Below the pieces are notes generated by a model. That model had not been told where the DNA came from and did not search any database. It saw nothing but the letters and a program-made list of their open reading frames with translations. This document shows positions 447 to 24,315 of a stretch of DNA of 24,315 nt, piece by piece. Each line of letters opens with the position of its first letter. Within the stretch, counting starts at the first letter, position 1. A program made the translations under genes and the position numbers. Source of the DNA: Alphaproteobacteria bacterium (GTDB lineage Bacteria; Pseudomonadota; Alphaproteobacteria; UBA9219); assembly GCA_028693775.1 (NCBI GenBank), contig JAQUUS010000001.1, positions 1 through 24,315 on the forward strand, in the 5' to 3' direction.

Positions 447-1334
447 ATGACCACGAAGATCGAAGGAACCTGGCCCGCCCTCATAACCCCCTTTAAAGAC
501 GGAGCTGTGGACGAAGCCAAAATCCGCGACCTCACCAAGTGGCAAATCAAAAACGGAGTCAGCGGCATTATCGCTTGCGGGACCACTGGCGAAGCTCCGA
601 CGCTCGATACCGAAGAACATTCCTGCGTCGTCAGGACCATTGTCGAGGCCGCAGACGGCAAGGTTCCCGTTTTTGCAGGCGTCGGCACAAACAACACCAA
701 GCATGTGATCGAAAATGCCAAGCGCGTCGAAAAACTCGGCGTCGAAGGCCTCCTCGTCGTCAATCCCTACTATAACAAACCCACACAGAGCGGCCTTTAT
801 GCGCATTTCCGCGCCGTCTCGGAAGCAACGCCTCTGGATATCATTGTTTATAACATTCAGGGCCGTACGGCTGTAAACGTCGAGACTCCCACGCTCGTCA
901 GGCTCGCCAACGATTGCAAAAATATCGTGGGCGTCAAGGAAGCTTCGGGCTCGCTCGATCAGATGTCCCAAGTCGCCCGCTCCTGCCCCAAGGGCTTTGC
1001 CATGATGTCCGGCGACGACGCCCTGACCCTCCCTTGCATGGCCGTGGGCGGCAAGGGCGTTATTGCCACAACGGCTAACATCGTTCCGAAAGAAATGAGC
1101 GATATGACTTCCGCCGCTTTGGCCGGGAACTGGGACAAGGCACGCGAGCTTCATTTCAGGCTCTATCCCCTCTTCAAGGCTCTCTTTATCGAATCGAACC
1201 CTCAGCCTTTGAAGGAGGCCATGGCCATGATGAAGCTTATCGACGCCCCGGAACTCCGTTTGCCGATGGTTCGCATGGAAGAGGCCAACAGGTTGCGTCT
1301 GGCCGCCGTTATGAAGGAATATGGGCTGATTTGA
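447..1334 (+). CDS. dapA: 4-hydroxy-tetrahydrodipicolinate synthase
   Basis: 295 aa with GTTGE, YY (NPYYNKP), YNIxGRT and the Schiff-base lysine in GVKEASG; GGAG RBS upstream of the ATG. Confidence 0.96.
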   Translation: MTTKIEGTWPALITPFKDGAVDEAKIRDLTKWQIKNGVSGIIACGTTGEAPTLDTEEHSCVVRTIVEAADGKVPVFAGVGTNNTKHVIENAKRVEKLGVEGLLVVNPYYNKPTQSGLYAHFRAVSEATPLDIIVYNIQGRTAVNVETPTLVRLANDCKNIVGVKEASGSLDQMSQVARSCPKGFAMMSGDDALTLPCMAVGGKGVIATTANIVPKEMSDMTSAALAGNWDKARELHFRLYPLFKALFIESNPQPLKEAMAMMKLIDAPELRLPMVRMEEANRLRLAAVMKEYGLI

Positions 1335-1347
1335 GCCATCATGACAG

Positions 1348-1387
1348 AAAAAGCCCTTCCGGACTCTTGTCGGGAAGGGCTTTTTTT
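1348..1387. terminator. intrinsic terminator after dapA (bidirectional form)
   Basis: AAAAA-GCCCTTCC...GGAAGGGC-TTTTTTT, 13 nt after the dapA stop. Confidence 0.85.
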
Positions 1388-1541
1388 AACCCTGACGCCT
1401 TCACTGCTACAAAAACAGGCCGCCTGGAAATGGAAAACAGGTATAAGAACCTTGCCCTTGCGGCTTGCATTTTTTAACGTCAGCATGCTTATGGAGCATG
1501 AACGAGTCGCCTTTTTTCCATGCATAAACCGGAGAATATTG

Positions 1542-1973
1542 ATGTCAGCTTTTATTATAAAAATTAATGCCGCCACGATAGACGAAAACAAGGGATGTGC
1601 CCTTTCCCATTCGGAAAACGCGCTTTATCTGACGAATGAATCTTTTGAAGTTTCGCAAATCGAGATTACTCGCGATCCTTTTACCGATGAAAACAGCTCC
1701 AGAATCTTCAGGCCAGGGCTTCTGATCACCCGAGGAAAAACGTCATACTTCGCCTTGGATATTACGGCCAGGCAATTTGACCGGGACATCACTGATTACC
1801 TTCGCGTAAACAACCATTTTGTGCGCATGGACGTAACACAAGACTATAATCGCAAGCCTTCGGAAGGCGATGGCCCCCTCGCTCAGGAAAGCGAAAGGGT
1901 TTATGCAGGCCGCAGCGTTTCCGGAAAGGAATTAAAAGCCGCTTATCGCTTTGTGATGCACAATACGCTTTAA
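1542..1973 (+). CDS. hypothetical protein, 143 aa
   Basis: GGAG at 1531-1534 lies 7 nt before ATG 1542, and a terminator follows the stop. The longer 1341 start would run through the dapA terminator. No family recognised. Confidence 0.7.
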   Translation: MSAFIIKINAATIDENKGCALSHSENALYLTNESFEVSQIEITRDPFTDENSSRIFRPGLLITRGKTSYFALDITARQFDRDITDYLRVNNHFVRMDVTQDYNRKPSEGDGPLAQESERVYAGRSVSGKELKAAYRFVMHNTL

Positions 1974-1988
1974 TTTATGGGACAAAAC

Positions 1989-2026
1989 AAAACGCCCTTC
2001 CGGACAAATCCGGAAGGGCGTTTTTT
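1989..2026. terminator. bidirectional intrinsic terminator
   Basis: Perfect 16-bp inverted repeat AAAACGCCCTTCCGGA-caaa-TCCGGAAGGGCGTTTT followed by more T, lying between convergent ORFs. Confidence 0.9.
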
Positions 2027-2071
2027 CTTGGCTTTACCTTACTTTGCTCTCACTACCCGCACCAACCCACT

Positions 2072-2488
2072 CTATGCCGCCGAAGAAGCCACCAGCGCCA
2101 CAGCATCGGTTTCGCGACGCTGGGACAGCGTATAACGGGCTCCCTCCTCAACTTCCTTCATCAGGCGGGCCTTTCGGCGGCCCTTTTCCATCTGATGAAG
2201 CGCATACCAGATCGAATTTACGCTCACATTGAATACCGCCGCACGCTGCTTCAGAAGCGCGTTGGGATACGCCTCCACATGGGCGCGCAAAGCGACCCAG
2301 TCCATCTTGTGCTTGGAACGAACCTGCCCACGGGGACCGGGCTTGTGGTAGGTCATTGGATCGTCGGCTTTGAGCCAGTTCGAAACGCTCTGGACACTCA
2401 CACCGAAACGGCGAGCAGCTTCGGCTTTACTCCCCCCGCTTTGGACAAAAGCAAGTACTCTTTTTCTCAAATCTATGCTGCACCGCAT
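2072..2488 (-). pseudogene. IS630 transposase N-terminal fragment fused to a 38-aa non-transposase tail (138 aa ORF)
   Basis: GGAGGA RBS (2493-2498) before ATG 2488. The ORF stays open to TAG at 2072 but lacks the expected basic orfA end and any catalytic orfB. Confidence 0.65.
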
Positions 2489-2537
2489 AACGTCCTCCAC
2501 ATTAATGAATGTTGCACCGCGTTATGTAATGCTATGA
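2189..2537 (-). mobile_element. truncated IS630-family element (left end plus N-terminal HTH part of the transposase; no DDE domain)
   Basis: MRCSIDLRKRVLAFVQSGGSKAEAARRFGVS..SVSNWLK...LRAHVEAYPNALLKQRAAVFNVSVNSIWYALHQM matches the IS630 orfA/HTH pattern. Similarity stops near codon 100. The left boundary is approximate. Confidence 0.75.
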
Positions 2538-2821
2538 TCATACACTAAGACACAAAGCGTGGAAATACCTGTTGTTTAGTGGTTACTTGTTACCCTTTTT
2601 GGATAAGTTTTACGATCCGGAACAAATTAAAGGTACTTACAATCGTTATTCTCGGTATGTGAAATTAATTTTTAAAAATAGTTTCACGCAATTTCATTAA
2701 CTTTTGCCGGAGAAATTTTGGCGAAAAAATGGCGATCTATTTTCAAGTTTTTTTTAGAATAATCTCTTGGAAGAGCGTTTTTTGGTCCCTCTTTCCCCTG
2801 CCGATTCGGGATGTCGCCACA

Positions 2822-2856
2822 TAAAAAAACGCCCCGCACGATGGCGGGGCGCTTTT
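2822..2856 (-). terminator. intrinsic terminator closing the ribosomal cluster after rplO
   Basis: On the - strand CGCCCCGC-catcgt-GCGGGGCG-TTTTTTT; the stem begins 21 nt after the rplO stop. Confidence 0.88.
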
Positions 2857-2872
2857 GCTATGTCTCGTTCGA

Positions 2873-3352
2873 TCAGGCCGCTTTTTCTTCGGTCTTGACC
2901 GTCAACGTCACTTTGCCGCCGGCTTTTTCAATCGCGGCAATGGCGGACTTCGAGGCTCCGGCGACCGTGAGGTCGAGCTTCGCCTTGAGTTCGCCCTTGC
3001 CAATGATGCGGACGCCATCACGGGCCTTGGATGCAATGCCTGCTTCCATCAGACTTTCGGACGTAATCGGCTTCTTGGCGTCAATGCGGCCTGCGTCAAT
3101 CGCCTGCTGCAACCGGCCCAGATTCACGGCCGAATAGTCCTTGGCAAAAATGTTTTTGAAACCGCGCTTCGGCAGACGGCGGCTCAGCGGCATCTGGCCG
3201 CCTTCGAACCCGCCGATGGATACACCCGTACGGGCCTTCTGGCCCTTGACGCCGCGTCCGCAGGTTTTGCCCTTTCCGGAGCCGATGCCACGGCCAACGG
3301 TGATGGGCTTCTTGCGCGCGCCGGGATTGTCACGGAGATCGTTGAGCTTCAT
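2873..3352 (-). CDS. rplO: 50S ribosomal protein L15
   Basis: [46 protein letters not shown]; start taken at ATG 3352. Confidence 0.97.
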
Positions 3353-19709: not shown

Positions 19710-22531
19710 ATGCCAGACCAGCAACGCCTTACCCTTATCGACGGCTCCGGCTTTATCTTCAGGGCCTTCTATGCACTGCCGCCCATGACAAGCCCGGACG
19801 GAACTCCCGTCAATGCGGTCTACGGTTTTTGCACGATGCTCAACAAATTGCTCGGCGATTCAAAAACGCAGCGAATCGCCGTCATTTTCGACGCAGGGCG
19901 CAAGACGTTTCGCAACGAGATCTATTCCGGCTACAAGGCGCATCGCCCGCCGCCGCCCGACGAGCTTGTCCCGCAATTCGAGCTCATTCGCGACGCGACG
20001 CGCGCCTACGGCCTGCCGTCGGTCGAGGCCCCCAACTACGAAGCCGACGATTTGATCGCCGCCTATGCAAAGACAGCCGTTGCGAACGGCCTGCACGTTC
20101 ATATCGTTTCGTCGGACAAGGATCTGATGCAGCTGATCCGCGAGGGCGTCGAGATGTACGATCCCTTGAAATCGACGCCCATCGGCCTCGACGACGTTTT
20201 GAAGAAGTTCGGCGTTCCGCCGGAAAAGGTCGTCGACGTTCAATCGTTGATGGGCGATAGCACGGATAACGTTCCGGGCGTGCCCGGAATCGGCATGAAA
20301 ACGGCGGCGGAGCTTATCAACGAATACGGTTCGCTCGACAATCTTCTGGCCAATACCTCCAGAATCAAGCAACCGAAGCGCCGCGAAGCGTTGATTCAGA
20401 ACGCCGAGCTGGCACGCATTTCCTACAAGCTTGTGCAGCTCGATTCCGATGCGCCCCTTCCCGTTCCTCTCGACGCCCTTGTTTGGCAGAAAGACCACTT
20501 TGCGGAACTGACGGCCTTTTACCGGAAACAAGGGTTTAAATCGCTTCTCGCCAAGCTCGACAAACAAACGCAGGCCCCTGCCGCTGCGGAAGCCACGCTC
20601 GAAACCGCCCCGGCGGAGAAGGATGTTGCGGCGACGGCGGCAGACGAAGCCTCTCCCGCGCTTTCCGAAGCAAAGAGCGACTATGAATGCGTCCAGACCG
20701 AGGAGAGCCTCAGACGCTGGATCGACGAAGCCCGCGCGCAAGGATATGTCGCGATCGACACAGAAACCAACTCGCTGACCGCCTGTACGGCCAAGCTGGT
20801 TGGAGTCTCTCTTGCAACCTCGCCGGGCAAGGCCTGCTATATTCCTTTGGGCCATGTGGACCCCAACGAGGCCCCGGACGACGGCGGATTTACTTTCACG
20901 GACGGCGAGAGGCCGAGGCAAATCGATCCGAAACGGGCCGCCGCCCTTTTGAAAGATTTGCTCTGCGATCCGGCGACGATCAAAATCGCGCATAACCTCA
21001 AGTACGACCTCCAAGTCCTTGCTCAATACGGATTATGCGTCGAACCTTATGACGACACGATGCTGCTCTCGTACGTTCTGGAGGCAGGCGTTCACGGCCA
21101 CGGACTGGACGAACTTGCGCTTCGTCACTTCCAGCACAGGATGATTTCTTTTAGCGATGTGGCCGGAACGGGAAAAAACAAATTACTTTCGACCGCGTTC
21201 CTTTGGACAAGGCTACGGACTATGCCGCTGAAGACGCTGACTTTACCTTGCGCCTTTGGCTGCTTTTGAAGCCCCGGATCGCTCAGAGCCATCTGACACG
21301 CGTTTATGAGAGGATCGAGCGGCCTCTCGTTCCTGTCGTGGCGCAAATGGAGACAACCGGAGTACGGATCGATCCGGAAATCCTGCGCGGGCAAAGCAAT
21401 ACCCTCGCCCAGCGCATGCAAAAACTTGAGACGGAAATTCATGCACTTGCAGGACATCCCTTCAATGTCGGATCAACGCAACAATTAGGCGCCGTTTTAT
21501 TTTCGGAGATGGGATTGCCGGGCGGATCGAAAGGAAAAAACGGTCATTACTCCACCGCTTCGGACGTCCTTGAGCCTCTGGCCGAGCAAGGCCACGAAAT
21601 AGTTTCAAAGGTTCTCGACTGGCGAAGCGTTTCGAAACTGAAATCAACTTATACGGATGCCCTGCCCCAGCAGATCAGCCAGAAGACCGGTCGCGTCCAT
21701 ACCTCGTTCTCGCTGGTCGGGGCGGCGACGGGACGCCTCTCATCCACGGATCCGAACCTGCAAAACATTCCTATCAGGACGGAAGACGGACGCGCCATTC
21801 GGCAGGCTTTCGTGGCTGAGGACGGCTTTACGCTCCTTTCGGTGGACTATTCGCAGATCGAAATGCGGCTTGCGGCTTCGGTCGCGGGAGTCGAGGCCTT
21901 GATCGAAGGCTTCCGCGAGGGACTGGATATTCATGCGCTCACGGCTTCGCAGGTTTTCGGCATTCCCCTGAAAGAACTTCCGGCAGATAAACGCCGCGCG
22001 GCCAAGGCGATCAATTTCGGCATAATCTACGGCATCAGCGGCTTCGGATTGTCGAAACAGATCGGGATTTCGCCGGGCGAGGCCAATGCCTTTATTCGCG
22101 ACTATCTGGACCGTTTTCACGAGCTGCGCGACTGGATGGAGGCGACCAAGGAGTTTGCGCGCGAGCACGGATATGTCGAAACGCTGTTCGGACGGCGCAT
22201 TCACATTACGGGGATCAAGGAAAAAAACGCGGCGCGCAGGGCTTTTGCCGAGCGCCAGTCGATCAATGCGCCGCTGCAAGGCACCGCCGCCGACATCATG
22301 AAGCGCGCGATGATTCGCGTCGGCCCGGCCCTGAAAGACGCCAAACTAAACGCGCGCTTGCTGCTGCAAGTGCACGACGAACTTGTTTTTGAGGTTCCTA
22401 AAAAGGAAATCGATGCGACCGTGGAGATCGTGAAAAACGTCATGGAAGGCGCTTCGGCGCCCGCCGTCACGCTCCGCGTGCCGCTTGTGGCCGAGGCCAA
22501 GCATGCGGCCAACTGGGCCGAGGCGCACTGA
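19710..22531 (+). CDS. polA: DNA polymerase I, interrupted by a 1-nt frameshift at 21173-21179 (about 940 aa if joined)
   Basis: First ORF (19710-21269): 5'-3' exonuclease (LIDGSG, EADD, SSDKD, GDSTDN) plus ExoI DTET and ExoII HNLKYD. The -1 frame carries ExoIII YAAED and polymerase motifs A (DYSQIEMR), B (RRAAKAINFGIIYG) and C (VHDE). One extra A gives GTGKKQITFDRVPLD. Confidence 0.95.
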
Positions 22532-22536
22532 ATGCC

Positions 22537-23352
22537 TTAGACCCTGTATGATGGGCCGCGACAAGCCGGACATGCGGCGACGGACCGGGTCGGTTTTTCC
22601 AGAAGCTCGTTAACCTGCATCACCCATGTCTCGGAGATCGATTTAGGACCGTGCCATGTGCCAATCTCTGCGACAGAATCGCCGTTATAATCGAGGACAA
22701 TCTTTTGCTCGATGACATTGACGTTTTTGATCCTGAAACCGTCGACATCCACGGCCGAAAGCACCCTATAGTTCGCGCAAAAACCGTTGTCGGCTTTTTC
22801 ACCGATGAGTGGACCCGCAAGGCGGACCCCGTACTGCGTCACGATCAAGGCATCCGGCACGGTATTGTCTTCGCAGATGACCGAAAACAAATCGTGCTCC
22901 CGGTTGCTTTGCAATCCGATAATGTCGTTGGAGCTCCCGGTTATTTTTGCCTGCGTTTCATTCAAAAAAAAGAAAAACTCGCGGTCTATCCCCAATCCGT
23001 CATGAACGCTCCTCACCCAATCCGAGAGCGTTGCGCCGGTCTGATATGCGACGCCCAAAAGAACTTCCTGGTCTTTGCCGTACTCAAGAACCAAAACGCA
23101 TTTTCCGCGGCTGTCGCCGCAGATCGAGGCGATCTTGAAACCACGGATCTCGTCTCTCGACAAAACGACAGTTTCTTTCGCGCCGTCTTTTCCGGTCCCG
23201 GTTATGGCGACGGCTTTGTCGGGATCGTTGAAAAAGACGTCCACATAGGGTTCAGCCTGCCCCCTCGTGCGGGCCACTCTGTATGGCGGAACGGTCCACA
23301 CCTGCTCGCCCAAATAAATCTCACCCATGTATCCGGCAATGTTTTTAGTCAT
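22537..23352 (-). CDS. hypothetical protein, 271 aa, with two internal PH-like repeats
   Basis: GAGGA RBS directly after the upstream stop; internal duplication VLS..GF[KR]I..VL[ED]Y..D..G..WV..V...L. Confidence 0.8.
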   Translation of the reverse strand: MTKNIAGYMGEIYLGEQVWTVPPYRVARTRGQAEPYVDVFFNDPDKAVAITGTGKDGAKETVVLSRDEIRGFKIASICGDSRGKCVLVLEYGKDQEVLLGVAYQTGATLSDWVRSVHDGLGIDREFFFFLNETQAKITGSSNDIIGLQSNREHDLFSVICEDNTVPDALIVTQYGVRLAGPLIGEKADNGFCANYRVLSAVDVDGFRIKNVNVIEQKIVLDYNGDSVAEIGTWHGPKSISETWVMQVNELLEKPTRSVAACPACRGPSYRV

Positions 23353-23363
23353 CGTTTGTCCTC

Positions 23364-23951
23364 TTATTTGGGTTCCAGTTTGTCTTTCTGCTCCATTGGC
23401 GAGAAGATCGACCTGTTGCTTAGATACATAAACTCGGCAAGCGCATAACCCAACGCGCCGCCCCGAAGGATTCCCGCCGCCGCTTGCTCAAATGCTTCCA
23501 CCGGCGGCATGCCTGAAAGGCAACCTGCAGCCCAGGACGCACCCGTTAAGACAAGAGCAAACGGAACCGCCTTGCGCATAATTCTCACGGCGGGCCGCCG
23601 GGCAAACGCTTGCGCGGCGTTACGAAACATATCGGGGATTTTTTTGCCTTCCGCTGCAGGGGCTCGCTTCGGCAAAGCACCGTTTTGGGAGACCTTGTCC
23701 GCTGCGCGCTTTTCCATGGCGGATTCGTATGCGCTGCTCAGAACGCCGACTGCGTTTCCGGCAATCAGGACGGCCGCAGCAAGGGCAAACGCCTCTTTGA
23801 CCGGCGATCCAAGGACATAACATCCAACGCCGCACGCCGCCGATACGACCAGCGATAACGGGGCGGAGTCTTTTGCGGCCTGAACGACAGAATGATCGGC
23901 AACAGTCGCGGACATGCGGCTAAATTCTTCGGAAATGTGTTTATAATTCAC
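23364..23951 (-). CDS. hypothetical membrane protein, 195 aa, two copies of a hydrophobic-hairpin module
   Basis: GAGGG RBS 7 nt before GTG 23951 (TTG 23957 is too close to the RBS); ungapped internal repeat at offset 99. Confidence 0.8.
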   Translation of the reverse strand: MNYKHISEEFSRMSATVADHSVVQAAKDSAPLSLVVSAACGVGCYVLGSPVKEAFALAAAVLIAGNAVGVLSSAYESAMEKRAADKVSQNGALPKRAPAAEGKKIPDMFRNAAQAFARRPAVRIMRKAVPFALVLTGASWAAGCLSGMPPVEAFEQAAAGILRGGALGYALAEFMYLSNRSIFSPMEQKDKLEPK

Positions 23952-23961
23952 GTTCAAACCC

Positions 23962-24252
23962 TCATTTTAGTGAAAATTCGTTTTTAAATGCCGCACACGT
24001 TTTTCGTCTCTCGACATATTCCTCGACTTCGGTACAGCCAACACACAGGACATTTGCCGCAACGAAGGTTACGGCCACTGTCACCGCTGCCAGCTGCGCA
24101 GGCACGCCGCCCACAACGGCTGCGCCCCCGAGCGCTATTCCGAAAATAATTTGCTTGGATGCAGCCGCTTTGAGCGCCCTGATGGACTGACGCCGCGAGA
24201 GAGCCGCTCCGGCCTCACGATAAACGCTTATTGCATGTTTGACGTTGTTCAT
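23962..24252 (-). CDS. hypothetical membrane protein, 96 aa, one copy of the same module
   Basis: AAGGGG RBS before ATG 24252; aligns without gaps to both halves of the downstream protein. Confidence 0.8.
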   Translation of the reverse strand: MNNVKHAISVYREAGAALSRRQSIRALKAAASKQIIFGIALGGAAVVGGVPAQLAAVTVAVTFVAANVLCVGCTEVEEYVERRKTCAAFKNEFSLK

Positions 24253-24263
24253 GGACGTCCCCT

Positions 24264-24314
24264 TTATTTCAATCCGCACTCTTTGCGAGCGGCCTTGGCT
24301 GCTGCGCGGCGTTC
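24264..24314 (-). CDS. 3' end of a probable further paralog (partial, runs off the window edge)
   Basis: Reads ERRAAAKAARKECGLK*, versus ERRKTCAAFKNEFSLK* at the end of the next gene; stop lies directly before that gene's RBS. Only 16 codons are visible. Confidence 0.55.
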   Translation of the reverse strand, partial: ERRAAAKAARKECGLK

Positions 24315-24315
24315 C

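Follow-up and report, generated by a model that had tools for sequence, protein, structure and literature searches.

What kind of proteins are encoded in tandem at the end of this alphaproteobacterial contig, and what might they build together? The window, that is, the whole stretch of 24,315 nucleotides analysed here, is the entire contig C239 of an assembly (G000) of 1.74 Mb in 283 contigs, 79% complete and with 56% GC. The original prediction described an array of small membrane proteins at the right-hand edge of the window, built from one hairpin module. Our analysis points, at roughly even chances, to a species-restricted operon of tandemly duplicated hairpins that would form a hetero-oligomeric inner-membrane assembly with a docked, possibly PH-like product. 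The features concerned lie in the window as follows.

22537..23352, minus strand: last gene of the operon, a soluble orphan of 271 aa
23364-23951, minus strand: gene A, 195 aa, GTG start, two fused modules (A1 and A2)
23364..23654, minus strand: module A2, gene A residues 100-195 and the stop codon
23655..23951, minus strand: module A1, gene A residues 1-99
23962..24252, minus strand: gene B, 96 aa, one ABC-type hairpin module
24267..24314, minus strand: 3' end of gene C (last 16 codons), cut by the contig end, with its stop codon at 24264-24266

The original coordinates and strand of the A and B frames were exact, and the fragment at the window edge does end in the tail and stop codon (24264-24266) reported for it. 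In the G000 assembly, no second contig overlaps the end of C239. Copies of A and B that are 98-99% identical are found on a 2141-bp Logan contig (L001) from run SRR8925805; this independent contig is 99% identical to the window and reaches 618 nt beyond it, which adds the following two features.

L001:383-670: gene C, whole, 95 aa, one ABC-type module
L001:1-378: gene D, 3' part, at least 125 aa, two hairpins

The suggestion that the gene at the edge is a fourth copy is thereby borne out, as the whole gene C shows the module, with 36% ungapped identity to A1.

Several features indicate that these are real genes of a single operon. A Shine-Dalgarno sequence lies 3-7 nt ahead of every start in the island, the intergenic gaps within it are 4-11 nt and no terminator-like site was found between its genes. 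Gene A begins with its GTG 7 nt past a GAGGG, which itself overlaps the stop codon of gene B; gene B has the Shine-Dalgarno sequence AAAGGGGA 6 nt before its ATG and starts 11 nt past the stop of gene C; and the 271-aa gene, with AAGAGGA as its Shine-Dalgarno sequence, starts 11 nt past the stop of gene A. Open reading frames on the opposite strand of the island gave no family match. The two assemblies differ by 12 SNPs over 1523 nt (6 synonymous and 6 non-synonymous), and every frame and Shine-Dalgarno site is intact in both.

The modules A1, A2, B and C share one unit of approximately 95 aa that aligns gap-free over 95 columns with 18-36% identity; between the two halves of gene A and gene B, the ungapped identities are 18-23%. 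The internal repeat of gene A at offset 99, for which 19 identities over 64 positions had been counted originally, comprises 22 ungapped identities over 95 positions, 18 of them in residues 9-72. Each pair was compared by Smith-Waterman (SW) alignment with 500 global shuffles and 500 shuffles in 12-residue blocks, which preserve local composition. A1 and A2 score 78 (z 11.2 global and 6.3 block; 0/500 shuffles), A1 and B score 75 (z 7.8 and 5.4; 0/500 shuffles) and A2 and B score 53 (z 5.6 and 4.4; 0/500 global and 2/500 block shuffles). Gene C is the clearest copy: against A1 it scores 160 (z 22.7 global and 15.0 block) in a gap-free alignment with 36% identity. Because the scores among A1, A2 and B beat composition-preserving shuffles, the similarity exceeds what Ala/Gly composition would give; the original prediction had named such controls as the point at which the repeat might collapse, and the similarity survives them, with z of 4.4-6.3 in 12-residue blocks. 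The residues that are invariant in the first three copies are A39, G48, P50, A54 and A59 in the numbering of gene A (one higher in that of gene B), in agreement with the earlier observation, and with gene C as the fourth copy they shrink to P50 and A59. On these alignments, we regard A1, A2, B and C as one protein family.

The array extends further upstream than the four copies first proposed. At the start of another contig of the same assembly, C71, two more genes occupy the first 690 nt.

C71:2-436, minus strand: gene G, at least 145 aa, two hairpins, runs off the contig
C71:455-688, minus strand: gene F, 77 aa

Counting gene D, the hairpin genes upstream of C number three. Two of them, D and G, are paralogues that run collinear and have two hairpins each (SW 102, z 10-13, approximately 30% identity), a divergence that marks them as different genes rather than as one gene in two strains. 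By sequence comparison, D and G form a second type, distinct from the ABC-type module. Gene F has no significant similarity to anything in Smith-Waterman comparisons with shuffles; it shares an eight-residue N-terminal motif with A2, in which seven of the eight residues are identical. An HMM built from A1, A2, B and C picks up none of D, G and F. The claim that the whole array is built from one module thus stands for four units (A1, A2, B and C) out of about nine, and sequence comparison does not support it for D, G and F.

The island can be placed between defined borders. F and G are divergent from a gene for a PMT_2/TPR membrane protein, which adjoins them at C71:723-2522. In three of six genomes of the same genus (G001, G002 and G004), polA is directly followed by a PMT_2/TPR membrane gene of approximately 570 aa, and the gene on C71 is its orthologue. 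Read from polA, which points towards the island, the order is the 271-aa gene, A, B, C and D, all pointing back towards polA, then an assembly gap between D (beyond the end of C239) and G (at the start of C71), then G and F in the same orientation, and finally the PMT_2/TPR gene pointing away. The island therefore comprises six or more hairpin genes with a total of nine or more hairpin units, plus the 271-aa soluble orphan, all lying between polA and the PMT_2/TPR gene. Its GC3 of 0.61 is at the 32nd percentile of the long open reading frames of the genome and thus gives no compositional sign of recent transfer. The PolA protein of the host is 80% identical to that of the MAG REEB112, and approximately 65% identical to the closest named ones, from Rhodospirillaceae/Azospirillaceae; this comparison places the host in an uncultured alphaproteobacterial genus.

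No relatives of the island proteins came to light outside this species. In Pfam, NCBIfam, PHROGs and PADLOC, no island protein reaches a curated cut-off, and the best PHROGs matches (E 0.01-0.05) are of unknown function. A profile of the module, run against 1.84 billion representative proteins, returned A, B and C themselves, and a word-seeded search of 5.8 billion clustered proteins with A, B and the 271-aa protein returned their own clusters only. Six-frame profile searches of 54 other genomes of the family, including 20 from the genus itself, were without a match, as were A and G as single queries against 40 relatives; the six-frame frames of G000 itself contain no further copy detectable with the HMMs of the ABC, DG or F type. 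A search of JGI metagenomes with gene A, tblastn searches of plasmids and phages, and an exact look-up of gene F in public contigs were likewise empty, matches to PDB sequences were at chance level, and in the ESM Atlas the nearest neighbour of A (0.80) is at chance level and C has no usable match. The original prediction recognised no family and proposed a module HMM search of the genome and of protein databases; that search returned self matches and no characterised family, and the proposed lineage-specific tandem expansion is in fact restricted to one species. Accordingly, the island is a species-restricted accessory operon between polA and the PMT_2/TPR gene.

Two sub-threshold hits were seen in the family searches, namely TcdA_TcdB_pore for gene A alone (13.2 bits, cut-off 27) and DUF6163 for gene B alone (13.6 bits, cut-off 27); neither was reproduced by the paralogues, and the TcdA_TcdB_pore hit was rejected as a family assignment. 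Residues 53-101 of gene G gave marginal matches (E 0.007-0.01, 31% identity) to frames of about 100-120 aa in three genomes (G027, G029 and G035) of one sister-family genus, which are probably due to chance.

Could such an island simply be a set of dispensable, fast-evolving frames, young or decaying orphans kept by drift? The presence of the island in one species only, the even split of synonymous and non-synonymous changes between the strains and the strong divergence of A2, D, G and F would all fit this idea. However, a ratio of 6:6 is still below the neutral expectation for non-synonymous changes, neither assembly has lost a frame or a Shine-Dalgarno site, and the persistence of four modules at 18-36% identity without any indel argues for selection on the protein. 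We therefore think it very unlikely that drift alone accounts for these genes.

The anatomy of the module agrees with the layout first described, in which an N-terminal helix is followed by a pair of Gly/Ala-rich helices with a Pro turn between them and, last, by a charged tail. The N-terminal helix is approximately 28 aa long and has a hydrophobic moment of 0.42-0.67; its net charge is +5/+6 in three copies (A2, B and C) and -1 in A1. In the modules A1, B and C, it precedes a core of approximately 45 uncharged residues with a helix-turn-helix arrangement, the turn being x-P. The long helices have a G/A/S fraction of 0.27-0.55 and several small-xxx-small motifs, and the motif A-[GA]-N-x-[VL]-[GC] is conserved in the second long helix of A1, B and C. 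Gene A was modelled by AF2 with low confidence (pLDDT 47.9), and we used the secondary structure of the model alone: in both halves, one short helix precedes two long ones that are separated by a 4-residue turn at G-x-P, with helices at residues 3-17, 20-46 and, after the turn, 51-89 in A1, and a disordered linker of approximately 17 residues separates the two modules. A prediction of a four-copy complex of B yielded a score of 0.00 with a fold pLDDT of about 40, a result that speaks neither for binding nor against it.

Kyte-Doolittle means over 19 residues peak at 1.8-2.2 in A1, B and C and at approximately 1.3 in A2, the least hydrophobic copy, whose helix 2 carries E, Q and R. The best 19-residue segments have an approximate apparent insertion energy of +0.5 to +5 kcal/mol, which is marginal and a rough estimate. 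Membrane insertion of the modules is plausible, though marginal by hydrophobicity. If they insert, the ABC-type modules are probably inner-membrane hairpins with both termini in the cytoplasm, an orientation that follows from the positive-inside rule. Some units, A2 above all, may be partner-dependent, peripheral or soluble. The same marginal energies, the charged helix 2 of A2 and the hydrophobic moments of the N-terminal helices would also suit a more general reading, in which the units are Ala-rich hairpins that are not integral to the membrane at all, being soluble, peripheral, as in the coat of a granule or lipid body, or inserted only conditionally. For the array as a whole this is quite unlikely, given the long uncharged runs of A1, B and C with their Kyte-Doolittle peaks and the charged flanks of these modules, with the N-terminal side strongly positive in B and C and slightly negative in A1.

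Class II holins and pinholins are small proteins in which a pair of weakly hydrophobic helices, rich in Ala and Gly, is followed by a charged C-terminus. The island modules are compatible with this layout in size, helices, presumed N-in/C-in topology and tail, with a hydrophobicity that is marginal, and the nearest language-model clusters of A are viral hypothetical proteins, at a similarity of 0.80 that is at chance level; the island might thus derive from a phage lysis cassette, as what is left of one or as a variant form. In contrast to holins, each of the many paralogues has a 28-aa N-terminal helix, and the neighbours are polA and the PMT_2/TPR gene instead of a lysis-cassette context. 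Neither a PHROG holin nor any other convincing lysis match was obtained, no endolysin, spanin or other phage gene was found in the island, and at least six paralogues are unlike any lysis cassette, which makes this derivation very improbable.

A bilobed hydrophobic domain also recalls the chlamydial Inc proteins. According to PMC3656976, this domain is the sole common feature of Incs, which otherwise have little or no sequence similarity and clustered genes. The island modules have a bilobed hydrophobic domain within the 40-60 aa that define Incs, in their case of approximately 45 aa, and they too are clustered paralogues that have no sequence relatives, so that secreted effectors inserting in a host membrane might be considered. 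However, Incs are type III secreted and belong to obligate intracellular bacteria, whereas the 79%-complete G000 genome holds no injectisome that we could find and is that of a flagellate-type alphaproteobacterium of approximately 2 Mb. Its single FHIPEP gene is probably flagellar; no second FHIPEP system, no VirB4 (PF03135) and no TssC (PF05943) was found in it, and nothing points to an intracellular lifestyle. We consider effectors of this kind extremely improbable.

The 271-aa gene at the end of the operon may encode a partner for the hairpins. Its product contains an internal two-fold repeat (z 4.2, 1/1000 shuffles), and its AF2 model (pLDDT 39.6, again of low confidence) consists of two successive units of 6-7 strands and a helix, each half being beta-rich and closing with a Trp-containing helix. 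The nearest named language-model clusters are bPH_3/zinc ribbon proteins, at a similarity of 0.84-0.86 that serves as a lead only. Pfam gave no match for this protein, and neither did the bPH_2 (PF03703) and bPH_3 (PF14470) HMMs at E<=10. In a Foldseek search of the model against the PDB, no hit reached E<=0.001 and TM scores were <=0.2; several of the non-significant hits were double-PH domains. From the predicted strands and helices, the protein could be read as two PH-like beta domains.

PH domains next to membrane hairpins are known from YdbS and YdbT: YdbS consists of 2 TM segments and one bPH_2 domain, YdbT of 6 TM segments and three bPH_2 domains, and YdbS/YdbT-like pairs occur in leaderless bacteriocin clusters, where they are required for the export of EntDD14 (PMC8657885). 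In these proteins, the TM hairpins alternate with the PH domains. Like YdbS/YdbT (PMC8657885), the island has tandem hairpins, here putatively TM, and adjacent genes in one operon. Unlike in YdbS/YdbT, the hairpins and the putative PH domains lie on separate polypeptides, there is no sequence similarity, and the island modules bear their own N-terminal helix and charged tail. YdbS/YdbT is the closest known arrangement, and we do not count the island as a member of it, since there is no match to a PH HMM and the parts are split over genes. A genuine bPH_2 gene of the YdbS-like kind is present elsewhere in G000 (C123:2186-2392, E 2.5e-13, in a 183-aa frame).

The same neighbourhood invites a further reading, namely a bacteriocin-like or toxin/immunity cluster, in which the small proteins would be membrane-active peptides or immunity proteins and the PH-like gene would serve export or protection. 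Tandem small, cationic, helical paralogues beside a possibly PH-like gene recall the leaderless multi-peptide bacteriocin operons from which YdbS/YdbT-like PH pairs are known (PMC8657885), and species-restricted accessory islands are typical of such cassettes. On the other hand, the products are 77-195 aa long, as opposed to 30-55 aa; searches of the genome, which is 79% complete, found no ABC transporter, TssC or VirB4; neither PADLOC nor Pfam gave a match; and the PH identity of the 271-aa gene is putative, there being no match to a bPH HMM. That no type IV or type VI secretion system and no second FHIPEP system was found in this genome weakens the effector and immunity readings alike, and we regard a bacteriocin or immunity function as unlikely. 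The original prediction had offered a pore, a granule coat and a toxin/immunity or anti-phage cassette as candidate roles; searches with PADLOC and PHROGs and for T4SS and T6SS markers brought no match.

The c-subunits of F/V-ATPases (PF00137) are Gly/Ala-rich helical hairpins with a short Pro-containing loop, and tandem hairpins of this kind assemble into an oligomer. The island hairpins are similar to them in being Gly/Ala-rich, in having a Pro turn and in being multiplied both within and between genes; they differ in that they have no Pfam match, no ATPase genes nearby and presumably cytoplasmic flanks, and in that A1, B and C conserve an Asn in helix 2 and lack an Asp/Glu in the middle of that helix.

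Returning to the assembly that we favour, we propose that several rounds of tandem duplication gave rise to the island, together with a single gene fusion, which would have produced gene A; the fusion implies that two modules work side by side. The hairpins would span the inner membrane, their two ends both facing the cytoplasm, the paralogues would form a hetero-oligomeric membrane assembly by packing along faces of small residues and Asn, and the 271-aa product would dock on the cytoplasmic helices or tails. A hairpin assembly with a separate PH-like product would be a split analogue of YdbS/YdbT. As to its role in the cell, envelope or peptide handling is a guess. A bolder version is a new machine, a hetero-oligomeric ring or pore of about nine hairpins of two or three types with a double PH-like cytoplasmic cap, which would be either a split, independently evolved counterpart of YdbS/YdbT or a new channel; we rate this as unlikely.

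If the products do assemble, the island would provide a compact natural membrane complex that grew from a minimal helical hairpin through tandem duplication. With the fusion captured in gene A and its two diverged subtypes, it would help in studies of the origin of membrane oligomers and of new gene families. As a gene family of restricted taxonomic range whose insertion borders are defined, it makes a clean case. We consider its value moderate, as the organism is uncultured and the island, as it stands, has no bearing on a long-standing question.

Some observations concern the flanks of the island. The polA gene of the window (plus strand, 19710-22531) is interrupted: it consists of two frames, 19710-21269 and 21203-22531, that overlap, owing either to an indel in the assembly or to a genuine frameshift. 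In all 12 of the relatives searched polA is a single open frame, of 932-974 aa in nine of them and of 445-961 aa in the remaining three, some of whose matches lie at contig ends. The convergent stops of polA and the 271-aa gene are 5 nt apart (window positions 22529-22539), which leaves no space for a terminator on either strand. On C71, the start of a second PMT_2/TPR paralogue (2405-3070) follows the first copy within the region 723-3070, and the relative G004 has two tandem PMT_2/TPR copies downstream of polA in the same manner.
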